NCBI GenBank assembly: GCA_041671045.1
Contig: JBAZCF010000002.1
Location: forward strand, 213,370 to 277,369
Reading direction: 5' to 3'
Source of the DNA: Parachlamydiales bacterium
GTDB taxonomy: Bacteria; Chlamydiota; Chlamydiia; Chlamydiales; JABDDJ01
Length of the DNA stretch: 64,000 nucleotides
Positions within the stretch are counted from its first letter, which is position 1. Every line of letters starts with the position of its first letter. Below are positions 20,801 through 56,800 of this stretch, piece by piece. Made by a program: the position numbers and the translations under genes. The notes beneath the pieces are model-generated. The model was given only the letters and a program-made list of their open reading frames with translations. It ran no database searches and was not told the DNA's origin.

Positions 20801-22113
20801 TTTGCTCGGACCCTAATTTTGAGCTCCTTTGGACGAATGCTTTAGGCAAAATTTTTGATGGGATAGAGGGAAGAAAAGATGCCCCAAGAATAGCTCGGGC
20901 CTTTATACAGCCCTTAGTACTGCATTATATCTCTACGGGTAAAAAAGCTGAGGCAGAGAAATTATTTAGGAAAGTCATAGATATCTTTGCCCATAAAACG
21001 CGTAGTAAGGTCGCATCTTCGAATGATCCCTTCCCTCAATGTATTGAGAGTTATTGTTGGAATGCCAATAGAAGCTTAGCTTTGAATTTAATGCTCTTAG
21101 ATATTTTGATAAACCAAACTGAGAAGACACATTTACAAACTAATATGCTCTTAGATTGGGGACATGAAATTATTTCAAGGCTAGCAAAAACTTATCCGTT
21201 AGAGGCTGAAATAGTTGGAAAAGCATTTCAAGCCTATATTTTAGCACCTTTATCTCAGAATCAACATGAACTAACATATCATTTCTCATTAGCGATGGAA
21301 GTGATGAACAAGGATGAGAGTAGAGGAATATGGGAAGCTGCTCCTAAACAAGCGGAGTACATAGCAATAATCTCTTCCATCATCAATGGTAGTGACAATT
21401 TGCCTAATGTAATGGAAGCGGAAGATTTTTATGCCCTTATGAAAGATCAAGTACAGGTTAAGAATACCTTCAGATTGGAAATTGCCTGCCGCTTTATTAA
21501 TGTGCTTATGCCACGTGTAAATTCGATTGTAGAGTCTGAAGTTGTCAATAACGTACTTCTTCCATTAGTCAATGCAGCATGCGATCTGGAAGATAACATT
21601 ATAGTCCTAGAAACAGTCGTGGATAGTGCTAATAGATATATAAATCCGAAGGATCCATTAAATTACCCTCTAGTTATTAGCATTTCGGAAGCTTTGCAAC
21701 TTCATTTTAAGAATAGCAAGGAAAGGAATGTTGAAAGTGAGAAGGCTTTAGGAAGACTTGTCATCAATTTTTTTAATAAATTCGATGTAAGTTATCTCCT
21801 TATGAAGGATTTTCTAAAGTATTATAGAGGATTAAACACTTTCATTAATTTATTTGCTAAACTTACAGATTTTTGTTTTATACAGAGCTTTACAAAACTG
21901 ATTATTCAAAAGCAGCGAGATAATTTTGACACCCATTCGGAGGAATATTCCATTCGACAATCGCTACTGATTCACTGGTGCGAAACGATCATGAATCTGC
22001 CTATGGGAAAGAAAACAATAAACTATATATTTGAAAATCCTTTACTAAGCAGTTCCTTGAGTGAAAACACTGACTTTATTCATAAACTATTGGGGTTTCG
22101 TAAAGCAAATTAG
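11863..22113 (+). CDS. Giant hypothetical protein 1 (3416 aa), paralog of the downstream gene
   Basis: This is an uninterrupted 10.25-kb frame in AT-rich DNA, where random frames close quickly. The product is Leu/Lys/Glu/Ile-rich and Gly/Pro-poor, which suggests helical repeats. It shows colinear similarity to ORF 22259..32653. I recognise no known domain. Confidence 0.9.
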   Translation: MTSIYNNNLSVNSSNFCSLDIYDPIRNIPTGAPPLILPRESSGDRGRAYALNTRLIDNTANFTNTPPPFDNSILDMEILCKNVKDYLVNTKFGTKTLIERWIAIREGAKYRSKDIPAEKKPPLPKFCIVGSTAIEVLDEENRTRIFNHAQVEALNTDFAKENLGKKSNDLDVRAIPAVTSWDENIKMLVDFLLASSSQQQRSLYYEEEWGVLENLLTEILRYTVVPTLGEYFLVRQPKVDQGIGTPKTPFLADSSNLWLEIDPDSLTPSGDNLKIKVVCGNNAHPAKALVHKAYGYFDLDPKGKNYTAPIVYCSAMVADKRTISRAKLEELISSLILVWKIKKADQIAVTLRNVVQSHHKQSVDEALAVVLLKLECAINALNVEGKPPVISSALFQEVWRNLFLNNERNGNSLLEVILKLRLDSKCPAELINAFLTVVGAAYLAMPYDGLNYDENEVIYTEQEGVPSAQFKVGTDVYLHLPLDFEKAVEVIEKYYLANAREIPSEVSTLVFGLLEKICDNELFDGFGPSRLYQFKTKIPSSFTDVKVALQTWSESPSPVLRAAAAHMWAVYSELGDAEAMKSLFLHDMLNLDDKIRNYIILKILCVQSPETQWGLIEHECERQNIPHALAATRKPELCRLAMEMQQKKVSKSFFHLLLEADAAAALDYLDRIKDEEEAKALTEVFIDKCFQKAPREILQAKFEVLYAIAPHNSHVIRFCISDRQDMLADLLVKVRDNSVGMNKHDLFECCLKAVSLPKTDKMTIIEILESEKESLADLWQRCEKEIILPIAMELLSSEDIAFVEAGKNLKEQLKKELSNAELAPLLDPAFKIHYRLVSLESTVRLKKSDEAVKKLFKLAAMPLDAAAKVRLEAAALSLTTHLISEISTPHAVELLARIFVNPDLKTFDKIHRSIWIGCSAYIIQSKEATEDKYSKSIPALLQISLKWLEITPSIHKTELKNHTDSLLALLSLLQKLPVNIPQVILLYRALSNHTQIKIKFHSIELTGLNLIHFFETALKEKYLDLAGFALNKLLTDSKEMKFLESSPHSLKRRLIRSFARQWKNDPSQLKQAANWLKSSNRIFLGDSIWLGCVCRWLHEVNRLQDHIGSEVVEKVIKEWMDYVRNNKEHVDPSKNTVLVLTLLSLLEKPNYSNLKSLFTQDILLVMYCSLSLRHSAQRNAMQKLHSLALSVGAILSSNVDSPKNNVFLIQVFRRLWKEEKFKEALLIFEQFANAFNEKGQKIASSMAFEILECIELMEGNACTECILELLIKLKDSVEGSSTHAYWKYCFKSLFRFSCAKENFVLAAKICLFSDDLKDLTDAVIKGLLVKLDLQKFDYINQLLKKNPHKCSLQMWKQIWVIGTSKKLYAELLECYPLFSVSYPFKGGDPLLEEIYALVLNVLFLQESPLLPLFLNANLQQLEQMSLRSTTNSSLRLHLSQLLLDRLLTGEYVEGQGKRIWSLWLNLKQLPLDVNITEKYAASLFAYSFKHRDDFLIENILEHYKERIKSDPASVRKKYEEQLNALEHWPEHFNTKFYLFLFILYVNAGQMVSYDVTLNWLLRHVENKEAGFFTFYLFSQFSKFYPLQCANFIEQNSQKFDALIDVLACSEQNFNEIYSILAQIYQSDAIAKDKYGKLLSKLFSLHFVLDENNPNPLCVDRERMDKFLDSAAHLTQSSEYKDYYTSSVITTCRILTSKEDLSVFLNYSNRIINLIDVKAPDQNLVTTFVLQISQAVQSRMLTREQRTVANSVLMLLLKCFAEVKCVLDNGTLELVYDTIEHLVLSSSFENPVNVEKILPLLNILKRDPMLLIALEIFSQDSSFILKKYDNKQILSGIKYLFIKAAHADPVPFGVLFGIIKRYSNVKDILKDNADEQISLLEHLYLFGSSVDEILLVLNYINNNQHVLGERWSSGNKSKALGLHFICLRKFLNVNSSHFTSLQISYEQLISAFQAFHRLIKKDFFVLNSNDTSNRELFHNFASMTLDTMKFCLMNSTSFNDKQSELIQFILNNIYHLCVKPISRSQFLREDMELSKKLLTICVEVTAIAERCGGINRNWLCGVYIQGSIIQHPLDIFPFLSNEARDYAIIHFLKVYSAETALREAFDYCDRSESKESMLLCLDYISRIVLEVNQSNDCNDIPDELRQRHKDLLLAIVKQSLTLNERKSHLVHLTTLSNKGYFKQDIEAVHETILNAMEILILEEEKGFCSTLIKLMDGFEFWLKEPIRNEKVAFCIKNKGVIFGNEFVKETLCKTITAFVEHQVKTQQEAYLSWITSFLFLMDDLSERNRVIRLCVQGALLNEQYEYALIFINILKDDFGDADKKSVDTVFTMLLRSPIFAGSTEILFSTQLVYLLTHPVYQNIFQRYSLSLEILTLLRLRAMRDGENGNVANDILEKMLLRTIKSDIEKRALKKALSKEYMDTLVDTLGMITEQKNKRKERELDSDELQVYKEIFVLLWNNTSQTIRDNSLLLLTLGFCTKETLDSLDDKVKDLIKRSLLTYLKTVFKDKKTTRLKEFKDILDEIFLQDLCDIKTLIFGIEFYYEMAEAFYKQGLVPDTFMWLDKYLSAYQETNFENLPSDIHKKVDFIFHLSLKHKEWFTLCTLVDLIEKTHPEKQAKAYFKKVQNFTSLEESLSFVKELDEMKWIADIFPVKSLLQKYLRPDSLKDITLIFEIVELYKIFDASIWNEILLIIQKCNVENIDSNVIQLIQRISMERKFADNLSLQARLFSALLTVFNKSKIHLELPLEITEENLDKLAAHSSEIKAEVLENGSYLKAYNAETLNRLLNILLNNPAFSRYDGMYLRQIIQANDMETIVKALRLVQRHLQDQDPKIFLQMYALLLKRALDIVKQGNTVTKEFLKVTKQINAILMKSTQITPLFFTYVVSLAGFGYDKLYYEAVELFDFTLEYVQSSLLMNELKRFNEAKESIFQALSQTGAPLVVCKVWGKAKDKGLIAKEEYENGMILILELVLKCHVSPFCSDPNFELLWTNALGKIFDGIEGRKDAPRIARAFIQPLVLHYISTGKKAEAEKLFRKVIDIFAHKTRSKVASSNDPFPQCIESYCWNANRSLALNLMLLDILINQTEKTHLQTNMLLDWGHEIISRLAKTYPLEAEIVGKAFQAYILAPLSQNQHELTYHFSLAMEVMNKDESRGIWEAAPKQAEYIAIISSIINGSDNLPNVMEAEDFYALMKDQVQVKNTFRLEIACRFINVLMPRVNSIVESEVVNNVLLPLVNAACDLEDNIIVLETVVDSANRYINPKDPLNYPLVISISEALQLHFKNSKERNVESEKALGRLVINFFNKFDVSYLLMKDFLKYYRGLNTFINLFAKLTDFCFIQSFTKLIIQKQRDNFDTHSEEYSIRQSLLIHWCETIMNLPMGKKTINYIFENPLLSSSLSENTDFIHKLLGFRKAN

Positions 22114-22258: not shown

Positions 22259-25200
22259 ATGTCTTCGCCTAGATTTCAAAATCCTGTGTCTTTAAGTGCT
22301 ATCGAAGCATTACCTACCCCTCTTCGCATAGAGGAACTTCCCGACACTCCAGAACCGGAACAAGTATTCATTGTTTGTGGAGAGACTGAGGAAGATGAAC
22401 TAAGGGCTTTTGCTCGTAATTCAGGCTGTGTCGATGAGGAATATTGGCTTATCGGTCCGGTAAAAAAATTCGATCAAGATATCTTAGATATTGCTTACAT
22501 TACCCAAGCCCTGCAGAAAAAACTATTAACCCCGATAAAAAAAGGCAGTGGAACAACGACCAATGCTGAAATTTGGGAATCGCAGTATCTCAATGCTGAA
22601 GCTCGGGCTACCCCGATAACTGAATTCGCCGTGGCGGGCAGCACCGTCATCGAACTTCTGGGTCCTGATAATCGTGTTCTCATCTTAAAAGACGGCGGTG
22701 CTCAGGCATTATGTGTTCCCAAAATTCTCGAACAATTAGATCTTAAGCCTTCCGATTTTGACGGTCGAAGCATCTCTTCGACGGAACAATGGGATGAGAA
22801 GGTACGTCTTGTTGTTGATGCTATCTATATCCATGAAACTCCTGAGGAAAGAAGATCGCTCTATGCAATGAATTACGCGCTATTAAAGAAGAAAATCAAA
22901 GAGGATTTCAAGCTAGATGTCAGAGGAAAAGGCTCTGACTATACACACATTGCCTTTGAGGGTGTAGACCAGGTCAATAAGGATAAGCGTGGCCAATTTT
23001 GTTTATTTTCCTATTCGAACATACAAATAAGGGTTGTCGGTAGTTCTGTCACTAAAGCGGCTGACAAGTTACAAATAAAAATTATCTGTGAAGGAGGCGC
23101 CCACCCTGCCCAAGCCCTTATCCACAAATCATTAAAAATTACTCATACCAAGTCTCCTGAAGAGAAAGACTATCGCGGTGCTCTGGTATACAGTTCAAAT
23201 CTAGTACAGGAAAGTATCTGCCCTAATGCCACGGTTTTTTCCAAGCATCTGAAGGTATTCCAGTCCTTCTGGAAAACGTGCTTATGGAATATGCCCTATC
23301 CTGCTGAAACAGTGATCTATCTCATTGGGAATATTTCAAGTTCGCATAATAGCTCGCCTCTATTTGCTAAAGTGGGAATGTTATTAAAATTAGAATCTGA
23401 ATCGCCTGAAGAGCTGACAGAACCATTTTTACAGGTTTGGAAAAAAACTTTTATCAAATCGAAAGAGCATTTGTATGGAATTGCGAAAGATATTTGTTTG
23501 GGAAGAATTGACAGTGAAGTATCTGCAGTACATTTGAAGGCTGTATTGGGAGTATTAGGAGTACTTCATTTAGGGATGCCTTGCCATCAGAAGACGGGAG
23601 CAGGGGCAAATGTGGTATATACGGAAGTGGAGAAGAAGCCTACAGTGCGCTATTTGCTGTGTAATAATACTTACCTGCATATTCCGCTAGAATTAGAGAA
23701 GTCTATCCAAACGATAGAGGCACTATACATCAAGTGCAAGCAGGACAATGACCTAAGCAAGTTTAATGCACTATCACAGTTATTCATAGGACATTTTGAT
23801 GCTGAGAATTATTCAGGACGCGGTAAGTCATCCTTAAGCAAGTATGCGCCCCTTAAACCTGAAGAATTCGCCCTCTTACGGACTCAGCTTGAAACTTTTC
23901 TTTCTTCTGAAAATCTTTTTCTTTGCCAAATAGCATTTGCTATTACAGCCGTTTTTGCTCTGCATGAAAATACTTCAGCAGGGAAATTTTTTATAGAAAA
24001 GGCGTTCCCTTGGCTTAGTAAAGATACATTTATTCGATGCTTAATGGAGAAACTATTGTGCATGAATGCACTTCCTGCCTGGGAGAAGGAAGTGGAGGCT
24101 TTTTGTAAAAATGCAAAATGGGGATCAGCCCTTGCTGCAGCAGATAACTCAGAATTCCATTCCAAAGCTATCTCATTCGCAAGCGAAGATGAAATTGAAG
24201 AAGTGTTCAATATCCTGGTACAAACAGCACCGGAAGAAGCCGTACGATTTTTAAAATTAACCTCGAAAGACCCTGAGAAGACAGAATTGGTAAAAAAACT
24301 AGTTTCATTGTCTATCGAGAAACTTCCTCTCACCACAGCTTCTACAGATTTTCCCTTTTTTTCATCTTATTTAGATGATTTACAGCTTCTCTCATTTGTA
24401 GATCAAAAACCGGAACTCTTACACGAGGTTTTTTCACATCGCAAAAGTTATACTATAGGCTTACCGGTGCTTCTAAAACTAGCCAAGAATGCACTTCTTG
24501 TTCCTAGTATTGATAAGTTGGCGGTCATAAACAGTTTTGATATCGCCTTATTAAAAGATGAAAAACTCTGGGCCGCCTATTGTAGCGAACTGCTACATCC
24601 TATTATCTTTGAATTGCTTTCAAGCAACATTCCTCAAAAGATCCAGGAAGGGAAAAAATTAAAGAAGAGCATTTCAGAAGGAAATTCTCCCCCTCTAGAA
24701 GTTGAAAAAACTCTCATAGACTTTAGGCTATTCTGTATTGAAAACTACCTAACTGCAGGGGATCTAATTTCCGCCATAAAGGGTTTATCCAAGCTAGCTG
24801 GAATCTTGATGAATCCTACTTCCTCTGCCTGCTATGAGAGGTATTTAAAAGAAGCCATTGTACAAACATTGCACTCGGAAAATGTATTTTTACAAAGGGT
24901 GCTGCTTACGCTGATAGTAGAATTAGATGGGAAAATAAAAGAGAAGGCTATCGATTGGGTTTGGGATAGCTTAGATAAAACGTTTTTCAAAGAAACAAAG
25001 GTTAAGACATGGAGCTCAGACCACATTGCTCAAGCTCATTTTTGTGCTGAGATCGCTGTATTATGGCTGAGAAATCATCCTGAAATCCCAGATCCGGTTA
25101 TTAATTATACTTTTGTTAAAATACAGACAATCTGCGAGGCATTTGGAAAAGCGCCCCAATTTAAAAGCGAATTATGCGCAAACTTTCTGCAGGCTTTCCT

Positions 25201-28200
25201 AACACACACACAATTAGAAAATAAACCTTTAAAGCTTCATTTGGATGTGCCCAAAAAGGAAATAGTACTTAAGGTACTCTTGAAAAACCATTGGGATATT
25301 GCCGCAAGCTTGCTTATAAAGCTCACCCCCCTGAAAGACTTTAGTCCTGTGATTTCTCAGCTGGCTTTTAAACTAGCGCGTAGATGGGCGAACCTGCCTA
25401 AGGCTTCTGTGTACCTGTTGTATGCATTACAGTGGATATCTGCAGAAAATGCCCCTGCTCAATTAGGTATGAACTGTTGGCTTAAATGTGCAACTCGTTG
25501 GCTTAATGCTGCGCATAAGAATAAAGTTTCAAAAGAACATTGTGAAAGAGTCGTTCTGAGTATTTTAAAAGGAGTTGCTGCTTCAGCCAACAAAGAGGAA
25601 AAACAAATTGGATTAGCTACGTCAGTCATTGTGGGTGAAAATCTTAAGCATATCAGAGAGGTAAATCTCAAAAAGCTATCTCCGAACCATTTTGTCCCTT
25701 TCGCCGCAGCGCTGAAAAACCAACTAATAAATGGACGTAGACGGAAAGCCTTTTTTTCCTATTTAAAGTGTGTGCATATGCTAAAGGGAAATATTTTTTC
25801 TTTTCCGGCAAACTTGAAACAGTTGAATGTGGATCTAGAAAGAAGTCCGTACTCGTTTATGGTGGTTGATAGCTTTGAAAAGGCTTTGGAGGAATGTCAC
25901 AAGCCTCTTCAACTCAATGAGGTGGCCGAGAAAGCCCCCGACTATTTGAAATCATCCTCGAATGTAGAGTTTCTATTAGAGGTATTTTACTTTTCATGGC
26001 ATAGAAAGCACTTTTCCCAAGCTTTCCTATTTTTGGATCTTGTTATTGCTCTAAGTATAGCGCCAGGTTTTGCAGCTTCGAATAAGTTCAAACAGGATTT
26101 GTTTGAAGTCATCGGACTATTTGACAGCAGCCAATATAGCCATACTATCAGGCTCTTGACGCTTTTAAAAAGTTGGTTTAATCACCCTCATCTCGAGTTA
26201 ATCATCCAAGAAAATTTTGACGCAGCACTTAATGCCGGCAAAGTAGGCGAAATACAGGCGTTATTTGAACTGAAAAGTGATTCGCAGAACTTCAAGAAAT
26301 GGGTAGATCATTGTCTAGAAAACTTTACAAAAGAGAATTTTGATTTGTTAAGTAAGCAAATGCCAGCATTTGCTGAGCATGTTTCCCTTCAACACTGGAC
26401 AAAACTATGGTGTAAGCTCATCGAGAGAAAAAAAATCCAGGGGTTTGTAGAAGGTTTCATAACGTTCTCAAAGAAATTCCCTTTAGATTTAAATGAGGAT
26501 AAAATCCTAGCGGCTTATGCTCCTGCGCTTGAATATATTTTCTTCCAAAGCAAGGATAACTTTGAGAAATTTTTACAGATCCATCCTGAAGCCATAGAAC
26601 TTTCTTTTAATGAATCACTTTCTAAAAATTTACGTTTAATATTGATTGAACATGCCTTCAGAAATCCTACAGATTTCAATTTGTATTTAACAAGGCTCTG
26701 GAACCTCTATGTAATAATTCAAACGAATAAAACAACAATCATTAATTACATCGAGGATTTGTTTCATCCTGCCCTGGAATTGGGCAGCCAAGATTTTTCA
26801 AACAGCCTATTTGCTACCCTATGTTCCCATCTCAACGATGATAATGTAGGGCCGCTTCCCCACAAATGTGCACAATTACTTTCATCTATAAACAAGTGGC
26901 CCGAAAATTTCCAAAGTTCCCTTTACCGTCTTTTACAGGCATTAAATCGTTTTGTGATAGCAGACTCGACCTATCAATTGCCTGCTTTGAGATGGCTTCT
27001 ACGTTTTGAACAGTCGGAGATGTTATCTCAGGAAACCTTCTTGATACTTCATCGTTGTGTGCCAATTTGGGAAAGTCTTAGCTTGATCATAAGAGATGAG
27101 CAGACAAAAGTTTTGGCTCTCATAAATCACTGCACAAAGAAAGCGGAAAACTTCGTACCTCTGATCCAAATACTAAATCGATGTTTTAAAGAAGGGTTAC
27201 TTCCTAATGAAAATGCTCAGAGTCTTATTTTTGACCTATTGCAAAGTGCTAGTGAAAATAGCACTTATACATTTGAAGAGAAGATCACCGCCTTATCCTG
27301 TTCATCTAATGCTCTACTGCATCATCCTGAATTAGCCGATTGCTATGTTAGAAGGGGATTAGGGTGGTTGGTCAATGTATGTGAATTGAAACAGCCCTCG
27401 GCATCTTTCTGTACTTTATATGCCCTATTGTATACTTCATTTGAAAACTCCTTATGGGAGCATATTCTCTTCGAAGAAGTATTAGAAAAGTTATATGAGA
27501 AATTGAATCTCCCTGAAAATTCAGACGATGATAGGGATAAGTCTATTGAATGTATACAAGAGGTTTTTTGCTTTCACCTTGCTAGAATTAGCAGCATATC
27601 TGCTTCTGACAACAGCTGGCTAAAGCATGCCATAGAAATTTATATTATCAAATTAGTTAAACTACACGAAAAATTCAGTTTAAGAAATATTTCATCCTTT
27701 ATCAACTCGCTCTCAGGATTTAAGTTATATTCTCCTGATGAACTCAAAAAAGCTTTATCAGCCTTCCATCTTGTATTTGATCGCTTCGCCTGGAATAAAA
27801 ATAAGCTAGAGACTATAGAAGAGGATCCTGTTGATCAAGGAATAAACTATCTTGCAGATGTGATATGTCTTAGATATACGACTGAAGCTCCTATCTTCTT
27901 TGACACACTTTTTCACGGGGTCTATATCCTGGATTTATATGGAAAAAACCCTGATAAACTTTGTTCTTTCTATAAGAAAATTATATCTTCTTTCCATTCT
28001 TTAGAGCTTCTTTCCTCTTTCATCGAACACTTAACTCCACAGGGACATGTTTTTGGAAAGGGTTTTACTGAATTTAGTTGTTTAAGAGCACTTGACGTAC
28101 ATTTGAATGTTTTCGAAAAATTTAGCGATCATGTGAATTCTGTGCAGGAAATAGATGCAAAGGGGATTCTGAGTCTTTTCACTACTCTTGCAGGTTATTT

Positions 28201-31200
28201 CACTAAAATATTGAGTTTGAAATTAAGTATCACTCATCCGGAGATTGATACATCGATTTTATGGAAAAATTATTTAGCAATAACAAAACACTTTTTGGAT
28301 GTCCTTTCAGCCCTTATTAAAAGAGACACAGATTCTACCTTACGTTCTAAGGTCAGCTATGAAATCTCTGAATTATGCATCATGCCGGTACTTAGGACAA
28401 TTTCAAATAGCAATGGAATAGAGGAATCAAAGGAGCAGCTTAGAAATGTATTTGTGAGCTTATATGAGATGGGATTGTATTCAATTTTAGAAATGGAAAT
28501 TAGCACAATATTATCACCTCAGTCACATCTTTCTTGCAGGCCTTTTTTTGAATCTCCACTATCCGCACTTTTCTATTTGCCACAGTCTATGCCAGTGCAT
28601 ATTGCCAAAGCAGTTTTAACTTTCCAGGACCAGGCTTCAGCAATTACACAAGCACTGAAAAGAAATGAACCTCTGTGTGGACCGGAGCTTCCTTTTGAAC
28701 AAACCCTAAAGTTTGTAAACTACCTATTTACCTTGGCCTTAGAACGAGATAGCTTAGATGACACTAGCGCTCGAGCAGTCATTCACTATGTTCAAATATT
28801 GCTTACGAGACTGGATGCAGAACATCAATTACGTCTTATAAAAGAGATTTTTCCTTTCATTTATGAAAATAAAAACCATCTTTTCATAGCATACTCTGAA
28901 CAGCTTCTATTGGAAATATTAAGCCTTTGCTTAGGCTTGAACTCTCCTCAAAACACAATACAAGAATTATTAGGGATAATTCTTATCAATTTAGAGATCA
29001 AAAATACCGATAGGATGAGGCAATTAGAAAGTTTACTTGTAAGGGCTTTAATTCATATTTATTCCGGGGAGAAAGAATTATCTCCACACAAGTCTTTGCC
29101 CTTGGTTATAACTTCTTTTTTAGATGCTCATTGGGATTTGGAGGAATTTTCACAAAACCTATTGCTGCTCTATCTCATACCACTATTGGATCGGGAAGAA
29201 CAGCAAAGACAATGCCAGCAAGGCCTTTCTTCTGCCATAGCCGTCCGCGATCCTTTCAATGGGATGTTACTTATCGCTCGTTTTGCAGAGATGGACGTTA
29301 TTCTTCCTGAAGATCATGTCACAGCAATATTTGAAATTCTTATCTATCAGTTTTGGGCCAAAAATGTTTCCTCAGATCTATTTACTCAGGTGTTAAGAGA
29401 TATTTTTAATTCGATTGAGGTAGAGCATCACCGAAAAATATTGAATTGCATCCCTGTGGATATATGCAGGCACTATTACTATGCACTTAAGGGTCTTTCA
29501 AATGAGAACAACGCTATCAGAGATCTCTTAGCTAAATTTGAAGAATACATTATTTTAAAAGAGCTCACCGGCATTAAAGCCCTAAGAAAAACTTGTACTA
29601 ACCCTTCTAACGATGTCGCCTTAGAATATTTAGACATCCTCATTGAATGTACGGATTTCGTAGCAGAATCTACAAGTAGCACTGTTGAGCTTTTAGCAGG
29701 GTCTTTGCTGAGAGAGTTTATTACATGGAACTTTGAACCAAGAACTTTAGATAATATACTGAATTGGTTTTGTGCTGATTCACCGAATTTTGTCTTGGAA
29801 CTATTCGATGAAGATTCTTTGAATATCCTTGTGAAACTTATTAAGCAGAGGATTGCGAAATTACATCACGATAATGAAATGGATATTGATGATTTCATCA
29901 CCGTAATAAATGAGAAATGGCAGACCCCCCAGAGCTTTTTATTTATTGGCGATTCAGCCTTAGTATCCTCTCTCTCTGTTATTGCGCAAGAATTAATCGT
30001 TCATGGATTTGTTAAAGAAGCATTCAGTATATGTAGAGACTTGATTGAAGCGTTTGATGAGTTGTCCCCGGTATTAATGAACAACCTTCTTTTTAATTTA
30101 TCGGCAAAGGCAGTGGAAATTTATTCCACACCTGATCGGGGGCTTGAATTTTTAACAATAATTGCTTTTGTTGAAGATTTTCATCCCCAAAATCTGAGGG
30201 AAATCATTGATTTTCTTTGGAGTAGGGCCAGTATTTCTACTGATTGTTCGAATGCATGCATGATGGGGATAGCTTTTCAATCCGATGAAGTATTTAGAAA
30301 TCAGTTTCCAGCTCAAGAATATGTGAAAAGGTTTATACTTGAATATTCTCAGAACGAAGATATGCTTTGCGATGCGGCTGAGTTGATCGAGCTATATGAG
30401 ATTTCTGATGAGAAAATTTGGCTCCAACTTTTCGGATTTGGGGCTTTGGCAAAGAAAAAATCAAATATCGAAGCTTTAAGGAGTTTGATTCTTTTTGCCG
30501 AAAATTCCTCCCACATTTCGCTTCCACCCTATACTTATGCAGACTGTCTTATTGCTCTGCTGTTTGCGTCTAGCGAAGCTAAATACCCATTGAAATGGAG
30601 CTGTACGTATTTAGAATATGCAACGAAATTCTGCAAACTTGACATTGACATTTCACGGAAACAACATCTTCTGGTCTATTTACTTTATAATTCCACTTTT
30701 GCAGTGGAGACTCCTTCAAACAATCTTGTGCAATTTTTCGCGGTGAGGAATTCAATTCATGAACTTAAATTGCATGGCGGGGCAGGAGACTTAGCAACTG
30801 TAGACAAGTTTTTAATGAGACAAGCTCTTTCACCGGGCCATAATCAAGAGGTTCTTACCTCAGCTTTTTCATTTTTGAACCTAAAACAAATGGAAGGAGA
30901 GAATGCTGACAATATCATCAACTGGTACATTCTACTGATTATACGTTTAAAAGAAGTTTTAAAAGAGGAAGAACAACTCTCACCGGCATTGTCAACAGCC
31001 TATCGATTTCTAGTAGGATATTTAAAACGCCATATGTCTCTTTCAAAAGCCATATCTTTAGCCCACCAATTTGCAAAACTTCTTCGTGCCGACTTTAATG
31101 ACGATGTGGTTATTTTCGTTACGCATGCTGCGCAATGTGGTGCAACAAAAGAGACCTTTACACCTGATATAAGACAGCAATTCTTCGAGATGATGTGGTC

Positions 31201-38498: not shown

Positions 38499-38749
38499 GG
38501 GGCTTTGCCCCCTAGAACCCCCACCAAAGGGCAAAGCCCTTTGGAAACCGCGTTCTCCCCTTCGGGATTTACACGTTAGATTTGGCTCGGAAGCATTAAT
38601 TAATCTCTACATCAGAAATGCAAAGTAAAATGCTTCTATTAATAAAAAAAGAAAAATAGAGGTGAGATAGTCAGACTCTTGTCAATCCAATCGCGGATTC
38701 CCAAGGCTGCTAGGCCTTGGGTGGGGGTGCAGGGGGCGAAGCCCCCTGC
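38496..38749. repeat. MITE-like element A: two diverged 57-58-bp double-hairpin arms in inverted orientation around a 139-bp AT-rich core
   Basis: The left arm (38496-38552) is TAGGGGGCTTTGCCCCCTAGAACCCCCACCAAAGGGCAAAGCCCTTTGGAAACCGCG. The right arm (38692-38749) is CGCGGATTCCCAAGGCTGCTAGGCCTTGGGTGGGGGTGCAGGGGGCGAAGCCCCCTGC. The element lies between the convergent MCP and GDH genes. Confidence 0.85.
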
Positions 38750-41700
38750 TCAGGTTCGCAGTTTTCGTGGAGGATGACGGGGAGGACGTCGACGATGGAG
38801 GGCAGCCAGGAGAGGCCGCGTTTGTAGACGGTGTCGGCGGAGAGGAAGCAGGCGATGATGGCTTTCTTGTGGTTGGGGGGTATTTGTTCTAGGAGGGCAT
38901 GGAGGTGTTTGGTGCGAAGGAGGGGTAGACAGTAGTTGAGGAAGCAGCGGATGAGGGGGTCTTCGGGGTTAGAGGGTAGGTCTATGGAGTCGAGGTATTC
39001 AAGGATTTGGTCGAAGAAGTGGTTGATACGCGCAGAGATTTCATCAGAAATGTCGGTGAGTCTGCCTCCGTTCTCATTGAAGGTGGTGAGGAGGAGGTTA
39101 GCTTCGAGACCGGCGACGAGGCGTAGGCGATGAAGGATTTCCTCTACGAGGGCGGGTTTGTTTTCGAGGAAGCCTTTATCGCCTAGGGTTAGGCCGCTGA
39201 GGACTTCGAAGGAGGAGCAGATGACGCCCGTTTTATTTGCCGAGCTGTCTTTGATGATAAGGACGCCGAGGTCTTCTAGGAAGTAGCGGGCATCGTCATC
39301 CAGGTATAAGTTGGCGCCTTCGACGATGGCTTTAGCTGTCGGTTTTCCGGAAGGGTCGAGAAATTCTGAGACGTTCGCACCGTTGAGGGTTTTGGGGCGG
39401 CCGCCGGCGGGTATGAAGACGTCGGTGGAGATCACATGGACGTTACGTCGCCATAGATGGTTCATATCGTTGCCGCTATGCCATTCCTCTACGACTTTCC
39501 CATTAATTTTTTTCCAGCAGAGAGTTTGTTGTGAGAATGTATTTTTTGAGCGGCTAGTTTCCCTATCAACCAAGAAGCCTTCTTCATGCAATTCTTCGGG
39601 TGGGTAATGGCGGATGGGTTTACCTTGTTTGAAAAGGTCGACGAGGATATCTAAGTTTAGGCCTTTAGGATCATAAATTGTTCCGGACGCGTCGGTTAAA
39701 GCAAGGATTTTGGCTGTTTTAGGGTAGTAGCGTTGTAGGTTGCATATCTCGTTGCCAGCGACGTCGCCGTCGGGACCGCCGGAGATTTTAACGGTGAAAA
39801 CATTTTTGTAAGGATCTATTCCTAGCTGTTTCAGGACGTATTCGAGGTAGACATTCAGACCGAGAGAGGTAACGCCATATTCTTTGTGGTTAATCCCTAG
39901 AATAGGTTTTCCGGAGATAAAAGCGCTGCCGGGCTTGTAGTTGTGTTTCTTACTATATTCGGCTATCCATTCTATCATGCTGTCGTGCATATTTTCGTCA
40001 GGACCTAGATAGAGGTATTCCGGTTTTTGCCAGAAGTCCAATACATGTTTAGCTTTAAGTTTTCCATTGGCTTCGCAGTTGACAATAGTGATGAGAGCTT
40101 CCACAAAAGTGCGTTGGGCATGGTGGAGATATTCTAATTTTTGTTCCTTCCTGTAGTTGTCCACTTTTGCATCGATATCCTTTTTATTTAGGCCTGAAGC
40201 GCCCAGCTCTCTAGCAAGGATATCGGTTTCTAAATCCAGCTGTTCGTAAGGCTTAACAAAAATAACGGCTTTGGCACCACCTTCGGGGATATCTTTATTC
40301 TTTTTGTCTTGTGTATAGGCAAGGTTATAGCATTCGGTGAAAACCCTATTGATCTCGACGAGCATACGTTCTTTCTGCTCGGGATAGATCGTCCGGACGC
40401 CGCCGCGCGATAGGTCTTTGAAGCGGATATGGAAAGAAAAGGTGTACATCCCTTTCACGAAGATGATGGCGAAGGGAAGAACCGGGAAAAAGGCAGGGCG
40501 GTTGAAGGGGATTTCTTCGAGATAGAGGGGGTCTAATCTAAAGCTGAGGGCTGTGAAATTGGTGCGGTAAAAATTAGTTTTCAGTGTGAAATTGACGAAG
40601 TTGATACCCTGAGTGAGGACATTTTTTCTGCGGATATCGTTATCTTCATGTCCTGTGTCAATCTTAGAGATGTCGTTGACGATCCTTTTCTTCAATTTGA
40701 GGTAGGTGTCAATATTTGTGTTCCACGGATCAAATTTACTTCTGAAAGCTTCGCAGATATGTGCTGTAAGTTCGGGATGCCGGCATAGAGCTTCTACAAT
40801 ATTGTCTAGGGTGTATAAATTCTGGTCTATGTGGACCAGAGCCTGGTGGATAAAGGTGACGATAGTCCTAACTAGGTTGCCTTCATTCCCACTAACATAC
40901 CCTGTGGAAACAAGCATTTTTTCTACAGGGTCGCCATCCTCAAAATATTTGATAGTGACGAACTCTCTTAAGAAATCATGGATATTCTCAATTTCCCAGG
41001 CAGGTTTGCCATTGCTGCCGTGCAGCCCTAGAGCCATGACAAGGATGCCATCTTTACTGAAGGAGTTAACATAGGAGGCATTAACGCGCTTTATCACAAG
41101 TTGGTGCCGATGGATAACACCGGCCATACGGTATAAGAAATTATTTTTGGGACAGTTGCGCCAGGCTAGGACTATCTGCATAGAGACAGAGCTTTTCTCT
41201 TGCCAGTCTTCATTATAACGCACCTCATATTGGCAGCTATCGCGTGTCGTAGCGCGATGGAACATATCGATGGCAAGGACTAGCCTTTCGGTGGAAAGGG
41301 AACGCAGGAAGCGGAGGCTAAAAGAATTGAATATTTGCTCGAATTCGCCATCAGTAATGCTGGAATTGCGTACGTTTACTAAGGAACGCAGATGCTCCTT
41401 AGTTTCGGGTGTATAAGGGTTGGTTTGGACTTCAGCAGAGGACTCAATAAAGTAGACAGCTGCGATACGAAGATTCGCTTTAATGCCGGGAACAGGAGGA
41501 GGGGCTTTAGAGATGTAAGACTGATAGTTTCGAATGCCGTACATAGAAAAGTTTTTGAGAATTTTCAAGTCTGCATCGGTGCTGTCCTGGCACATGACAA
41601 TAGCAAAGTGGCCAAACTGGATTAGGGAAAAGTAGTCCTGTAAGTGAAATCCCATCAGTGTTCTGGCGACAACGATAAGATATTCGCGCCCGATTTCTTC

Positions 41701-41934: not shown

Positions 41935-41979
41935 ACCGTAGAGTAGAGAGGAAGTTTCCTGCCCTCTCTACTCTACGGT
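41935..41979 (-). terminator. Perfect 17-bp hairpin downstream of the P-type ATPase
   Basis: ACCGTAGAGTAGAGAGG (41935-41951) pairs perfectly with CCTCTCTACTCTACGGT (41963-41979) around an 11-nt loop. It starts 30 nt past the ATPase stop. On the minus strand it is followed by CTTGTATTTCTTC. Confidence 0.6.
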
Positions 41980-52695: not shown

Positions 52696-52869
52696 ATGAA
52701 AAATAACTTTTTCCCCTACCTCGCCACCGCCGCCTTCACTTCTTTCATCACTATCCTCATCGTTGTCGTGGGCATCTCCTACTCCCGCCGCCACGGCCGC
52801 ACTCCCATCGATATGGCCCAAATGCAACAACTCCGCGAAAATGCCTCCAACGAAGCTGCAATGAAATGA
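52696..52869 (+). CDS. Unannotated 57-aa single-TM protein, translationally coupled to the downstream DsbD_2-like gene
   Basis: My own translation is MKNNFFPYLATAAFTSFITILIVVVGISYSRRHGRTPIDMAQMQQLRENASNEAAMK. GGAGA lies 5 nt upstream of the ATG. The stop overlaps the next start as ATGA (52866-52869). It has the same C-ending codon style as its neighbour. It falls below the 60-aa cut-off of the ORF track. Confidence 0.55.
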   Translation: MKNNFFPYLATAAFTSFITILIVVVGISYSRRHGRTPIDMAQMQQLRENASNEAAMK

Positions 52870-53528
52870 CCCTCCTTCTCTCTATGCTCCCTATATATAT
52901 TCTAGGAAACCTCCACTGCATCGGCATGTGCGGCCCTCTCGTTATGATGATCGGTAAACACAACTACAGAAACTGGTACTTCGCAGGGCGCATCACCTCC
53001 TTCACTCTCATCGCCACACTCGCCGCCTCACTAGGCAGCGTCCTGACTATCTTCCTTAACCAATACAACCTAGGCGCCCTCCTATCCCTCCTCTTCGGCA
53101 TCGCCTTCATCTCCTACGGCATCCTCAAACTTTTTAACTTCTCACTCCATATCCCCGGACCCAACCTAGGAAAATACATAGCACCCCTCATCCTCAAAGA
53201 CTCTCCCAAATACTCTTTCTCCTTCGGACTCTCCACAGTTCTCCTCCCCTGCGGACAATCCCTCCTCGTCTTCTCCGCCTGCGCCCTCTCCGGCGACACC
53301 CTCACCGGCTTCATCAACGGCGCCGCCTTCTCCCTCCTCACCACTCCCTCACTCCTCCTCGCTATGCACGCCCACAAACTCCTTTCCTTCGGAAAGAAAT
53401 ACTACAACCAACTCCTAGCCCTAGCTTCCATCATCGCCGGCTCCATCGCTCTCCTCCGCTCCCTCGCTGACCTTAACCTCATCCCACACCTCACACTCTC
53501 CCAATCCCTCCACATCACCATCTTCTAG
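52866..53528 (+). CDS. Polytopic membrane protein with HCxxMCGP and LLPCG motifs (DsbD_2 / TauE-SafE-like)
   Basis: GNLHCIGMCGPLV and VLLPCGQSLL lie within about 6 predicted TM helices. This motif pair is characteristic of the DsbD_2-type family as I recall it. Confidence 0.75.
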   Translation: MTLLLSMLPIYILGNLHCIGMCGPLVMMIGKHNYRNWYFAGRITSFTLIATLAASLGSVLTIFLNQYNLGALLSLLFGIAFISYGILKLFNFSLHIPGPNLGKYIAPLILKDSPKYSFSFGLSTVLLPCGQSLLVFSACALSGDTLTGFINGAAFSLLTTPSLLLAMHAHKLLSFGKKYYNQLLALASIIAGSIALLRSLADLNLIPHLTLSQSLHITIF

Positions 53529-53862
53529 CAGGGGGCGCTGCCCCCTGCACCCCCGCCAAAAGACTGCGTCCTTTGGAATCCGCGCGTTGAGTTGTTAGGC
53601 TTGGAACTTTGTGACCATTAATTAATTTGTGGGATATTAATAGAGGTTAAATTAGAGATTTAATTAAAAATTAAAAATTAAAAATTAAAAATTAAAAATT
53701 AAAAATTAAAAATTAAAAATTAAAAATTAAAAATTTGGATAACTCTGCAATAATATTTCTGAATTATTTGTTGTGAAAAAGAACTATGAGCCAGCGATAG
53801 CTACTCGCGGATTCCAAAGGACGCAGTCTTTTGGCGGGGGTGCAGGGGGCAGCGCCCCCTGC
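53528..53862. repeat. MITE-like element B: perfect 57-bp inverted arms around a 221-bp AT-rich core containing a heptamer array
   Basis: 53528-53584 is the exact reverse complement of 53806-53862; I checked this base by base. The sequence is (G)CAGGGGGCGCTGCCCCCTGCACCCCCGCCAAAAGACTGCGTCCTTTGGAATCCGCG. The arms abut the TAG stops of the two convergent genes. Confidence 0.9.
53664..53733. repeat. Tandem heptanucleotide repeat (TTAAAAA) x10, perfect
   Basis: I counted the repeat directly. TT dinucleotides fall at 53664, 53671, 53678 and so on up to 53727, with strict 7-bp spacing. Confidence 0.95.
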
Positions 53863-53865
53863 CTG

Positions 53866-56800
53866 CTATGCGTTGACGGCGTAGGTGTTAGAGAACTCCA
53901 TGGAGAGTAGTTTAGAGACGCCTTTTTCTTGCATGGAGACGCCGTAGAGGCGATCGGCGATGGCCATGGTGCGTTTGTTGTGAGTGATGATGATGAACTG
54001 GCAGCGGTCGATGAATTGTTTGACGACGTTGAGGAAGCGTTCGACGTTGGAGTCGTCTAGGGGGGCGTCGATTTCGTCTAGGATGCAGTAAGGTGAGGGT
54101 TTGACTTCGAAGATGGCGAAGAGTAGGGCCATGGCTGTGAGGCATTTTTCGCCGCCGGAGAGGAGGCTGATGGAGCGCATTTGTTTGCCTGGGGGTTTAG
54201 CGGAGATTTCGATACCGGCTTCGAGTAGGTCATCGTTGTCGACGAATTGGAGGTCGGCTTCGCCGCCATTGAATAGGATGGCGAAGTTTTTTTGGAAGTT
54301 GGTGCGTATGGCGTTGAAAGTTTCTTCGAAGAGTTTGCGGGATTGGGAGTCGAGTTCTTGGATGACTTTAGCAAGTTCATTTTTAGAGAGTTTTAGGTCA
54401 TTGATTTGAGAGGAGAGGAAGTCGCTGCGTTGTTTATCTTGGGAGCATTCCTCGATGGCTAGCATGTTGATATTCTGAGTGGAGTCTAGTTCTTGTTTGA
54501 GCGTTTTGAGTTGTTTTTCTGTTTGAGGAATATCCTCGAGGAGAGGGGAGTTGGGAGTGAATTCGTCGTTATATTTTTCTTTGTAGGCGGAGGTGAGAGT
54601 TTCTTGCAGGGTGGAGAGTTGGGAGGCTTGGACTTGGAGTTTGTGTTTATCGTTTTCAATAGATTTCAGGTTTTGTTCATTCGAGAGCAGTTTTTTCTCG
54701 AGATTTTCGGCTTCTTGTTTAGCGTCAGCAGTATTTTTTTCTAGAGTTTGGCAAGAGGTTTCCAGTTTGAGGACGAGTTTTTGCACAGTTTCAATCTGGT
54801 CGGTGGTGTCGGTATTATTTTCGCAGAGGGAGTCTAGAGCTTCTTTGGCTTGAGAGATTTCGAGGTGAAGTTTTTTTATGTTTTGGCTGATCTCGTGTTT
54901 TTTTAGGGAGAGGACTTCGAGAGAGTGTTGTTGTTGCCTTTCTTTGGCGTAGGCTTCTTGCCAGCATTTGCGTGCGTTTTCAAAGTTGGCTTGTTCTTTT
55001 TTTACGATGAGGAAGAGTTCATCGAGGAGAGTGGATTGATGTTGGGAGGTAGTTTCAGAGAGTTTAAGTTGCTTTTCTAGTGAAGCGACGGAAGAAGCTA
55101 GGTCTTCGCAGCGTAGTGAGCTTTCGACAATAGCTTCGCGAGTTTTATTTTGTTCGGCTTTTAGGATATTGAATTCATCTTCGATACGTTTGGCGTCGGC
55201 TTGGTGTCTGAGGAGTGCGTAGTTGACTTCGACGAGTTTCATTTCGGTGGTGCGCATTTCCTTGTCGAGGGAGGTGCGTTTGATTTGTGTTTCGGAGAGC
55301 CTTTCTTGGTGGAGGCGCTGTTGTTGGCTGTGTTGGATTTTGCGGTGTTCAAGGGAGTCGATCTGCTCTTGCAGGGAGGTGATTTCGGCTTCGCGCATGA
55401 AAGAGTTGCCTTCGCGGCGCGGTTCGTAGAAGAGGACGCGTTTGTGGTCGATGAGAGCACCTTCGTTGGACCAGGCGGGAGTATGGAGGGAGAGGGCTTC
55501 ATCGAGGGTATTGACGATTTTAAGGTTGTCCAAAAAATGGTGGGTGAGGTTACTGTGTGGGGCGTCTTCAGCGCAGAAGAGGGTTACATCGGTCAGTTGG
55601 TGTTTTTTTATGTAGGCGAGGGTAAGGTTAAGGTCTTCTTTTGTGGCGACGACAAGAGTTTGTCCGTAAGGCTGCAGAGCGGCGGCGGCGGCTCTCTCTT
55701 GTCCCGGTGGAGGGGAGATAAGCTCGTAGAGGGGGGTGATTTTACCGTAGAGAGTATTCTTGGGTTGTGCGCTATCTTCCAGAAGACGTTTGCATCCTGG
55801 GGAGAAGCTGTCGAGGGCGGAGCGCAGTTCTTGCAAAGTGTGCAGGCGGGTTTGGAGTGTTGCGCTTTCTTTGACAAGTGTTTCACCGTCGGCCTGGCCG
55901 GTAGCTAGGGAGTCTTTAATTTCATTGTAGAGGTTGTCGAGGGTGTCGAGTTGTCCTTTGTAGGTGTCGATAGTGTCAGAAAGCTTTTTTAGTTCATCGG
56001 CACGGATTTTCTGTTTATCTTGAGTTTCCTTTTTCTGTTGCTCTAGGTTGGAGACTTTATCTTCGAGTGGGGGGAGGCGTTCATTTAAGGCTTCGATACG
56101 AGCTTGGAGTTGTTTCCATTCGGCTTGTTTAGAGCTGTGGCTTTGAGTTAGGGCTAAGCGGCTCTTTTGAGATTCGTCTTGGCTGCGGCGGGTGTCTTCC
56201 AGTTCTTGGGATTTTTCGTCGAAGCGGACTTGTGCTTCATCGAGGGTGCTGCGGAGCTCTGTCAGGCTGGAGCGCAGTTCGCCATGCGCATCATTTTGTT
56301 CACCTTGTTCTTCGGTATTTTTTTCATTTTGGACAGCTAGCGCCTGCAGGTCTTGTCCCCAGCGGGCAATTTGGTGTTGGAGTTCTTCACGCCGTTTGGC
56401 CATATGGCTGCGGTCGCGTAGGAAGAGGTCGCGTTCGTTCCGTTTGGCGTACATCTCGGCAGAGCGTTCCTTCCAAGCTTGTTCGCAGTCGTGGGCTTTA
56501 ATACGGGCTTGGTGAAGTTCTTGGCGTGCGGAGGAGATTTCAGCAGTGAGTTTTTCCAGTCTTTCTGATAGGGATGTTTCCTCAGAAGCAAGCTGTTGGA
56601 GGCGTTGTTTTCCTGTGGCCCATTTTGTTGTCATCAGTTGTTTTTCGAGCAGTTCAAAGAGGGCTTTCCGTTCCTTATAGGCAATGGCGCTGGCAGCTTG
56701 TTGTTCCAAAACGGCGATGCGTTGAGACACCTCTCTAAGGATATCTTCGACACGGGAGAGGTTAAGGTCGGTTTGTTCCAGTTTACGGAGGGCTTCCCTT

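Follow-up and report, generated by a model that had tools for sequence, protein, structure and literature searches.

We analysed a 64,000-nt stretch of a Parachlamydiales bacterium genome (GenBank assembly GCA_041671045.1, contig JBAZCF010000002.1, forward-strand positions 213,370 to 277,369), referred to below as the window, in which a DsbD_2-like gene (52866-53528; Pfam PF13386) and smc (53866-57321) converge on an inverted repeat that we call copy B. A sequence-only reading of the window had described segments 53528-53584 and 53806-53862 as exact reverse complements over 57 of 57 positions, separated by a 221-nt loop and bounded by the TAG stops of both genes, and a recheck of the sequence bore out each of these points. 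The match can be extended to 60 nt at 98% identity (53528-53587 / 53803-53862), leaving 215 nt between the extended arms. None of 100 shuffles produced a match, and by chance about 5e-27 would be expected across the window. GC content is 70% in the arms and 21% in the centre. Each arm is built of two hairpins (HP1 and HP2) joined by a linker and followed by a short tail, and the locus is laid out as follows, with bit scores from a covariance model (R1) described below.

53526-53528, plus strand: stop codon TAG of the DsbD_2-like gene; the arm begins at its G
53528-53584, plus strand: left arm of copy B, a 57-nt module in the sense of the DsbD_2-like gene (83.5 bits)
53528-53548, plus strand: HP1 of the left arm, GCAGGGGGC-GCT-GCCCCCTGC
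53549-53555, plus strand: linker of the left arm, ACCCCCG
53556-53576, plus strand: HP2 of the left arm, CCAAAAGAC-TGC-GTCCTTTGG, with one A.C mismatch
53577-53584, plus strand: tail of the left arm, AATCCGCG
53585-53805, no strand assigned: AT-rich centre of 221 nt
53662-53735, no strand assigned: heptanucleotide tandem repeat (AATTAAA)x10.6 inside the centre, 100% perfect and the only tandem repeat of the window
53806-53862, minus strand: right arm, an identical module in the sense of smc (84.8 bits), comprising tail (53806-53813), HP2 (53814-53834), linker (53835-53841) and HP1 (53842-53862)
53866-53868, minus strand: TAG stop of smc, 3 nt outside the arm, reading TAG-CAG-GCAGGGGGC

The element is small and without coding capacity, the sole open reading frame (ORF) in its centre being a 45-aa frame with a GTG start that overlaps smc. 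Folding of the whole of copy B as RNA gave -171 kcal/mol (z = -17), and as DNA -99 kcal/mol. A promoter scan of the centre returned three sites where 1.1 +/- 1.1 are expected, an excess without meaning at 21% GC. As a separate observation, GC skew between 52000 and 58000 stands at -0.29 on the plus-strand DsbD_2-like gene and at +0.39 over the minus-strand smc, far beyond the rest of the window; the sense strands of both genes are C-rich and G-poor.

Chimeric or fold-back assembly can yield perfect inverted repeats, and the short-read Logan contig covering this junction stops inside the arm, so that copy B might be an artefact of a metagenome-assembled genome (MAG). We consider this scarcely credible. 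The SMC protein of the window is 100% identical to one from an NCBI MAG, on a contig of 405 kb. The only sequencing run in the Logan collection found to contain these genes, SRR18595301, provides contigs that match the window without a mismatch across 13.3, 5.2 and 5.0 kb. Contig ends fall 30 nt into the right arm of copy B (contig L040, which confirms the outer 30 nt of that arm) and inside HP2 of the left module of a second element, copy A. Real repeats interrupt a k-mer assembler, which accounts for breaks inside the modules, and contigs that match perfectly and break where real repeats are expected make an artefact unlikely. Moreover, the gene order over the junction is that of four relatives, the 57-nt arm is shorter than typical short reads, and the arm is a bona fide member of a repeat family with relatives in other genomes.

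The double-hairpin module and its copies in the window

The window contains five modules of this kind, spread over three intergenic sites. Two are the arms of copy B, two more make up copy A, and one is a solo module (copy C). All share the layout of a G5C/GC5 hairpin (HP1), a C-rich linker, HP2 and a tail (AATCCGCG in copy B), with the consensus AGGGGGC-NNN-GCCCCCT for HP1, ACCCC(C) for the linker, a variable covarying stem for HP2 and AA(A/T)CCG for the tail. The covariance model R1, built from seven modules, returned exactly these five over the window at 70-85 bits, and nothing else above 25 bits. The three modules outside copy B are the following.

38495-38553, plus strand: left module of copy A; HP1 has at its base the TAG stop (38496-38498) of the MCP gene (69.9 bits)
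38692-38750, minus strand: right module of copy A; contains the last 12 codons and, in the HP2 loop, the stop (38710-38712) of the NAD-glutamate dehydrogenase (GDH) gene (79.1 bits)
60580-60637, minus strand: solo module, copy C; contains the last ~9 codons and, in the linker, the TGA stop (60609-60611) of a TolC-like outer-membrane efflux gene (82.1 bits)

All five modules read in the sense of the gene directly upstream and lie against or within its stop codon, the right arm of copy B being 3 nt off. In two cases the module contributes to the protein: the right arm of copy A encodes the last 12 residues of GDH, QGASPPAPPPKA, giving a tail that reads ...ENCEPEQGASPPAPPPKA*, and copy C, which is identical in Logan contig L001, gives the TolC-like protein the tail ...AARGLCPLDP*. 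Copy A matches copy B in overall layout, with a centre of 138 nt and 34% GC in which BLAST found no similarity to the centre of copy B. Its arms had been described as considerably diverged, and we indeed measured 71-76% identity between them, each arm retaining two perfect hairpins.

Pairwise identity among the five modules is 69-80%, and their stem differences are largely compensatory, as in CAGGGGGC/GCCCCCTG versus TAGGGGGC/GCCCCCTA or AAAGGGC/GCCCTTT versus AAGGCC/GGCCTT. Among seven modules, 8 of the 18 base pairs covary; across 23 modules from several host groups (see below), 13 of 18 pairs have changed on both sides with 96.6% of cells paired, a signal that none of 500 shuffles matched and that was lost when the partners were slid against each other. 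Predicted folds of single modules range from about -27 to -38 kcal/mol. Neither the sense and antisense fold energies nor the counts of G.U versus A.C pairs (of which 30 A.C counts come from one subfamily) decide on which strand the structure acts. Rfam 15 gave no gathering-level match anywhere in the window, and searches by E-value with copy B and with related units from Komagataeibacter stayed below 20 bits, at chance level; a tRNA and tmRNA search of the window found none.

Other structured gene ends were seen in the window. A second small repeat family, CCTATACTARGATAAG, occurs at 32735, at 60547 and, inverted, at 60454 (expected 0.06); its copies (32690-32750, 60440-60570) are preceded by GCGACAAGTC-type hairpins and lie at convergent junctions, after dnaK and after serS. 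The spacer between serS and the TolC-like gene is a nest of hairpins (60481-60505, 60500-60550). Native gene ends that lack the module include two terminator-like examples, spanned by 41935-41979 / 32649-32686: a 17-bp perfect stem after a P-type ATPase gene, and a hairpin with a 17-nt stem and A/T flanks between a giant ORF and dnaK. Two adjacent giant ORFs of 3416 and 3464 aa (11863-22113, 22259-32653) lie in the part of the window with the lowest GC content (35-39%).

Orthologous sites and copies in other hosts

The convergent order of smc and the DsbD_2-like gene is that of four relatives, and comparing the orthologous junction with theirs was the check proposed by the sequence-only reading. 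The junctions proved to be empty or differently filled, and R1 found no module in any of the relatives' loci.

L004 junction (SMC identity 87%, the closest relative): 308 bp, in which an unrelated inverted repeat with 65-nt arms (91%) encloses an AT-rich centre
L005 junction (SMC identity 78%): contig stops 50 nt past the stop codon
L006 junction (SMC identity 64%): 32 bp with a plain 11-bp hairpin
L007 junction (SMC identity 58%): an inverted repeat of 33 nt, together with a small additional gene

The centre of copy B has no detectable similarity to the relatives' spacer. The DsbD_2 stop stands at the same codon position in all relatives compared, and the SMC tail reads ...AVNA* here versus ...AVQVP* and ...AVNVP* in the two closest relatives, a change that fits a replacement of the last codons by the element. 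Nor is copy A present downstream of GDH in three relatives (87%, 70% and 69% identity); there the GDH tail is ...EPETPKKTPKR* or similar, whereas here it is ...EPEQGASPPAPPPKA*, and the aligned tails show that the copy A module replaced about seven native codons. The absence of both copies from orthologous sites indicates that they came in only once this lineage and its nearest sampled relative had split. Copy B was thus acquired at the smc/DsbD_2 junction after that split, replacing a short native spacer and coming to lie 0-3 nt from the two stops.

The relatives' own palindromes are of interest in themselves. The one in L004 (3608-3839) has a 102-nt AT-rich centre, and the one in L007 (9415-9494) has arms made of CGCAAAGG motifs. 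This L007 arm is found again in L005 (3-30), which implies that further palindromic repeat families exist in the clade. The smc/DsbD_2 junction seems to have been colonised repeatedly by different palindromes.

We then asked where else the module occurs. A strict pattern matching all five window modules was scanned over 185,579 species genomes, one genome per species, in a collection that does not include the source genome. It returned a single other true copy, in L003, an uncultured proteobacterial MAG of 62% GC; a second match, L002, was dismissed as chance, and none of the Chlamydiota species representatives carried a strict copy. The L003 module (726-786) is nearly identical to copy C in HP1, linker and tail, while its HP2 stem is entirely different and fully compensated. 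It is one of two inverted modules that flank a central hairpin, and the inverted repeat (571-813) reaches outward past the modules over the triple stop TAAGTAAGTAA at the end of ksgA, with stops in all three frames (GCGCGTGCTTATAAGTAAGTAAGG versus GCGCGTGCTTGTAAGCAAGCAAGG on the other arm) and RVLISK* as the last ksgA codons. This MAG appears frameshift-rich and may be a long-read assembly.

Looser patterns scanned over IMG/VR added three further groups, whose loci were preselected by pattern, so that their E-values overstate the case. The first comprises prophage contigs of Komagataeibacter, Novacetimonas and Gluconacetobacter, with 41 modules in 85 kb. Here, units of ~136 nt consist of a module and a weaker, degenerate inverted partner, and stand in tandem arrays of 1-5 (L041 18-690 and 4129-4400, L043 1232-1567, L048 2402-2601), with five units in a row at one contig end. 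The junction between terminase and portal genes holds 1, 2 or 3 units, depending on the Komagataeibacter-group isolate. Across linker, HP2 and tail, the left module of copy A agrees with the Komagataeibacter subtype in 33 of 35 positions. The second group is a phage contig of 68% GC (L024) with two inverted pairs, one of them between terminase and portal and both between genes of the same direction. The third consists of giant-virus-like contigs of 28-177 kb, AT-rich (24-33% GC), that encode ribonucleotide reductase (RNR) and a SAP-domain protein. In these, a GC-rich module that overlaps the stop of RNR (TAAGGGGGC...) is separated from an inverted module by a tandem repeat, (ATATAGGGCCGC)x13 (L038, 1497-1640), which occupies the same position as the AATTAAA run in copy B; this arrangement repeats the composite design of copy B, and tandem repeats may arise preferentially between arms.

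We regard the case for homology of the L003, Komagataeibacter-group and L024 modules with those of the window as strong, and that of the giant-virus-like modules as probable. Since the nearest relatives lie in Proteobacteria and their phages, and since the 185,579-species scan gave one other true copy, the family probably entered the Parachlamydiales lineage horizontally.

Several other matches were set aside. Hits of ~3 kb in IMG/VR were anelloviruses, identified by their ORF2 motif, in which tandem AAGGGGGCTCCGCCCCCTTAAACCCCC units in GC-rich tracts are look-alikes of the module. Apart from the loop, these units (L012 843-945 and about 12 other ~3-kb contigs) are identical to HP1 and linker of the giant-virus-like module, a resemblance that is striking though probably convergent. 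Four matches from a metagenome scan, in DNA of 68% GC and lacking HP2, were attributed to chance. A six-frame peptide search with the copy B arm against 5.8 billion proteins gave no match, and BLAST searches of GenBank phages and PLSDB plasmids, with the copy B arm and the elements from L024 and L041 as queries, matched only the G5C hairpin and nothing annotated. An exact look-up of the DsbD_2 ORF returned no record, and literature searches on Parachlamydia, Chlamydiae, giant viruses and Komagataeibacter found no description of the element.

Origin of the perfect arms and likeness to known elements

The family now includes seven inverted pairs. Arm-to-arm identity is 100% in copy B, 76% in copy A, 72% and 71% in the two pairs of L024, 71% in L003, 64% in L038 and 59% in the Komagataeibacter unit; copy B is the only pair with identical arms, and the hairpins within the arms are intact in all. 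Three explanations had been put forward for the perfect arms: recent insertion or duplication, gene conversion, and selection for an obligate 57-bp duplex. The last fares poorly, as the other pairs have fallen to 59-76% identity while keeping their small hairpins by compensatory changes. Because arms diverge yet their inner hairpins persist, conservation acts on the intra-arm hairpins and on the single-stranded ACCCC and AAWCCG motifs, and not on a 57-bp duplex. A duplex selected as such would be a bidirectional terminator, cruciform or RNase III site that evolved for the smc/DsbD_2 junction, and it could draw on the extreme stability of the fold and on the presence of some palindrome at this place in every sampled relative (11-bp, 33-nt and 65-nt arms). 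We nonetheless judge it very unlikely, since the arms belong to a family dispersed over unrelated genes in unrelated organisms, no other pair has kept long-duplex complementarity, and a U-tract terminator signature is lacking.

Recent insertion or duplication, in contrast, agrees with the data, as the relatives' junctions lack the module and copy B is the only perfect pair of seven. The perfect arms are best read as a sign of youth, resulting either from the recent insertion of a doublet or from recent inverted duplication or conversion of one module, and the flawless 7-nt microsatellite fits a young or unstable structure. The suggestion of mobility was broadly right, given the absence of copy B from the orthologous site in relatives, although its classical form, a transposon with terminal inverted repeats (TIRs), is weakened by centres that are not shared and by the lack of a target-site duplication. 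The outer ends of copy B had been singled out for such a duplication, and none was found there; nor was any direct repeat present at copies A or C (flanks ...TTCTA / CTGCTATG... for B, ...GATTTCT / CAGGTTCG... for A and ...CTTATGG / CGGCTTCT... for C).

These observations bear directly on whether copy B is a classical miniature inverted-repeat transposable element (MITE), that is, a deletion derivative of an insertion sequence whose 57-bp TIRs would let a DDE transposase encoded elsewhere move it as a 335-bp unit. Its perfect long terminal repeats, small size and non-coding nature would suit a MITE, as would its absence from the relatives' orthologous site and the existence of copy A as a second element of the same architecture. 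This origin is nevertheless improbable in our view: besides the missing target-site duplications and the dissimilar centres of copies A and B, one arm stands on its own as copy C, the window encodes no transposase, the arms of every other pair differ by 24-41% with each keeping its own hairpins, and the tandem arrays of the Komagataeibacter group vary in number at one site, which is the behaviour of repetitive extragenic palindromes (REPs) and bacterial interspersed mosaic elements (BIMEs).

A rather unlikely but more substantial alternative is that copy B never arrived as a unit. Each gene might have gained its own 3' module, or a solo module might have given rise on the spot to an inverted duplicate, for example through a template switch at a hairpin, with conversion keeping the arms identical and the AT-rich centre being local spacer DNA. 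Gene conversion or in-situ inverted duplication of the arms is possible. Copy C demonstrates that modules can stand alone, and the arms of copy A resemble different subtypes, the left one being that with 33 of 35 positions in common with the Komagataeibacter subtype. In L003 the inverted repeat passes beyond the module into ksgA codons in a manner resembling spreading conversion or duplication; together with the non-homologous centres of A and B, this leans towards local duplication or conversion. On the other hand, the inverted-pair design recurs in four unrelated host groups, which leans towards a propagated doublet, the centre of copy B has no detectable similarity to the relatives' spacer, and two independent insertions of the same 57 nt, each 0-3 nt from a stop, would be a coincidence.

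On balance, we think it likely that copy B is an inverted doublet of the 57-nt double-hairpin module, and hence a REP/REPIN/BIME-like non-coding palindromic repeat, young or homogenised, and not a TIR transposon. Across its hosts the module occurs solo, as an inverted pair around a variable centre or, outside the window's host, as a tandem array. Such an element would be non-autonomous and copied via folded single strands, either by an enzyme acting in trans or through replication errors at hairpins. Each of the convergent transcripts would finish in two very stable hairpins or extend into them, and these predicted 3' hairpins could shield the 3' end and impede read-through; a transcript crossing the whole of copy B would fold into a 57-bp perfect duplex, a natural substrate for RNase III. 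Since the phage copies lie within probable operons, the module could be at most a partial terminator.

Several results weigh against this interpretation. Copy number is low: the 64 kb contain five modules, and the 6.4 kb by which L001 reaches past the right end of the window contain none. No transposase, RAYT, recombinase or integrase is found among the ORFs of the window, where the neighbours are housekeeping genes. The module lacks GTAG or CGTC at the foot of HP1 or HP2, its ends being (T)AGCAGGGGGC... and ...AATCCGCG, and the 221-nt spacer of copy B is long for a REPIN and carries a microsatellite. A role in termination or stabilisation is opposed by the absence of a U-tract behind any hairpin: a scan of 53300-54100 gave no terminator-like site, HP1 being followed by ACCCCC and HP2 by the tail AATCCGCG. 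The phage copies sit between co-directional, probably co-transcribed genes, which excludes strong termination by the element there. Finally, the giant-virus-like members rest on loci preselected by pattern.

A more speculative possibility, which we hold only tentatively, is that the module is a horizontally travelling 'gene-end' element, shared by Chlamydiota, Alphaproteobacteria, phages and giant viruses, possibly exchanged inside amoebae and lacking a dedicated transposase, of which copy B would be a fresh copy with undiverged arms. It might spread by hairpin-mediated template switching or conversion, for instance. In keeping with the name, stop codons are carried or abutted by the module on both strands, as in TAAGGGGGC...GCCCCCTTA and TAAGTAAGTAAGGCC....

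Of the element classes considered, the module works most like REPINs and BIMEs, though it is not a demonstrated member of either. REPs form doublets that fold as hairpins, the REPINs of Proteobacteria (Bertels & Rainey 2011, PMC3116915). The module likewise consists of short, extragenic palindromic units at gene ends with covarying hairpins, forms inverted doublets that fold as a larger hairpin (copies A and B, L003, L024, L038), and occurs as singlets beside doublets and, in Komagataeibacter-group prophages, as tandem arrays of near-identical units whose number varies between strains. REP palindromes as characterised by Di Nocera et al. (2013, PMC3733652) have a conserved GTAG or CGTC tetranucleotide at one end, which the module lacks as noted above. 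The unit here is also longer and more complex, a double hairpin of 57 nt whose single-stranded parts carry the conserved ACCCC and AAWCCG motifs, and the window encodes no RAYT. REPIN-RAYT systems are presented in one preprint (bioRxiv 10.1101/2022.05.22.493013) as lineage-specific and vertically inherited. The module family, by contrast, spans several phyla and viruses, which argues against purely vertical descent.

Other comparisons are more partial. Neisseria Correia elements are small non-coding MITEs with TIRs that often lie between convergent genes and can act as terminators; when co-transcribed they form a long hairpin that is cut by RNase III. Copy B shares their small size, lack of coding sequence, TIRs and convergent setting, but has no TA or other target duplication, its arms are built of hairpins, and the family shows unconserved centres, solo arms and tandem arrays. 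Rickettsia palindromic elements (RPEs) insert in frame inside genes of an obligate intracellular bacterium; the modules, likewise palindromic repeats of an obligate intracellular bacterium, also become parts of ORFs by supplying the final 9-12 codons of GDH and of the TolC-like gene, yet their sequences are unrelated to RPEs and they lie at the extreme 3' end, bringing or abutting the stop codon. The GC clusters and double-hairpin elements of Allomyces and yeast mitochondria are organellar, mobile and not known to have a transposase; like the module they are GC-rich two-hairpin units in AT-rich intergenic DNA, a likeness of design, though they do not usually take the form of inverted doublets next to stop codons. 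Bidirectional intrinsic terminators and the 'hairpin rule' palindromes of Mimivirus follow directly after stops, are often common to convergent genes, and define or protect RNA 3' ends. The module shares this position, but has no U-tract or A-tract and is conserved in primary sequence across hosts; an intrinsic terminator, bidirectional or otherwise, was rejected for its GC-rich hairpins without a U-tract.

Further candidates were dropped, among them CRISPR repeats, group II intron domains, selenocysteine insertion (SECIS) elements and integron attC sites. The core sites of attC, R''/R' RYYYAAC ... GTTRRRY, bound an imperfect palindrome that belongs to a cassette array next to an integrase, whereas the ends here are GCAGGGGG.../...CCCCCTGC, the window contains no integrase, and the neighbours are housekeeping genes in conserved synteny. 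IS200/IS605 ends were rejected as they are direct and not inverted, and a G-quadruplex because each strand has only three G5 runs.

Taken together, this analysis describes an unreported palindromic intergenic repeat, of a known kind but matching no Rfam family. Small palindromic repeats such as REPs, REPINs and MITEs are usually treated as bound to a lineage and have hardly been described in Chlamydiae-related bacteria, whereas this one 57-nt module occurs in four settings: at the stops of Parachlamydiales housekeeping genes, in prophage arrays of acetic-acid bacteria, in a high-GC phage and, probably, at a giant-virus-like RNR gene. The element has rewritten the C-termini of proteins, namely GDH, the TolC-like protein and possibly SMC. 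With its perfect pair (copy B), diverged pairs (copy A and others) and solo module (copy C), the family forms a natural series on the birth and decay of palindromes whose sub-hairpins are maintained. In annotation, a covariance model of the module would flag ORF tails derived from the repeat and contig breaks in MAGs. If the distribution holds, the module would provide a manageable example of a non-coding repeat transferred between phyla, and a marker of exchange among amoeba-associated microbes.

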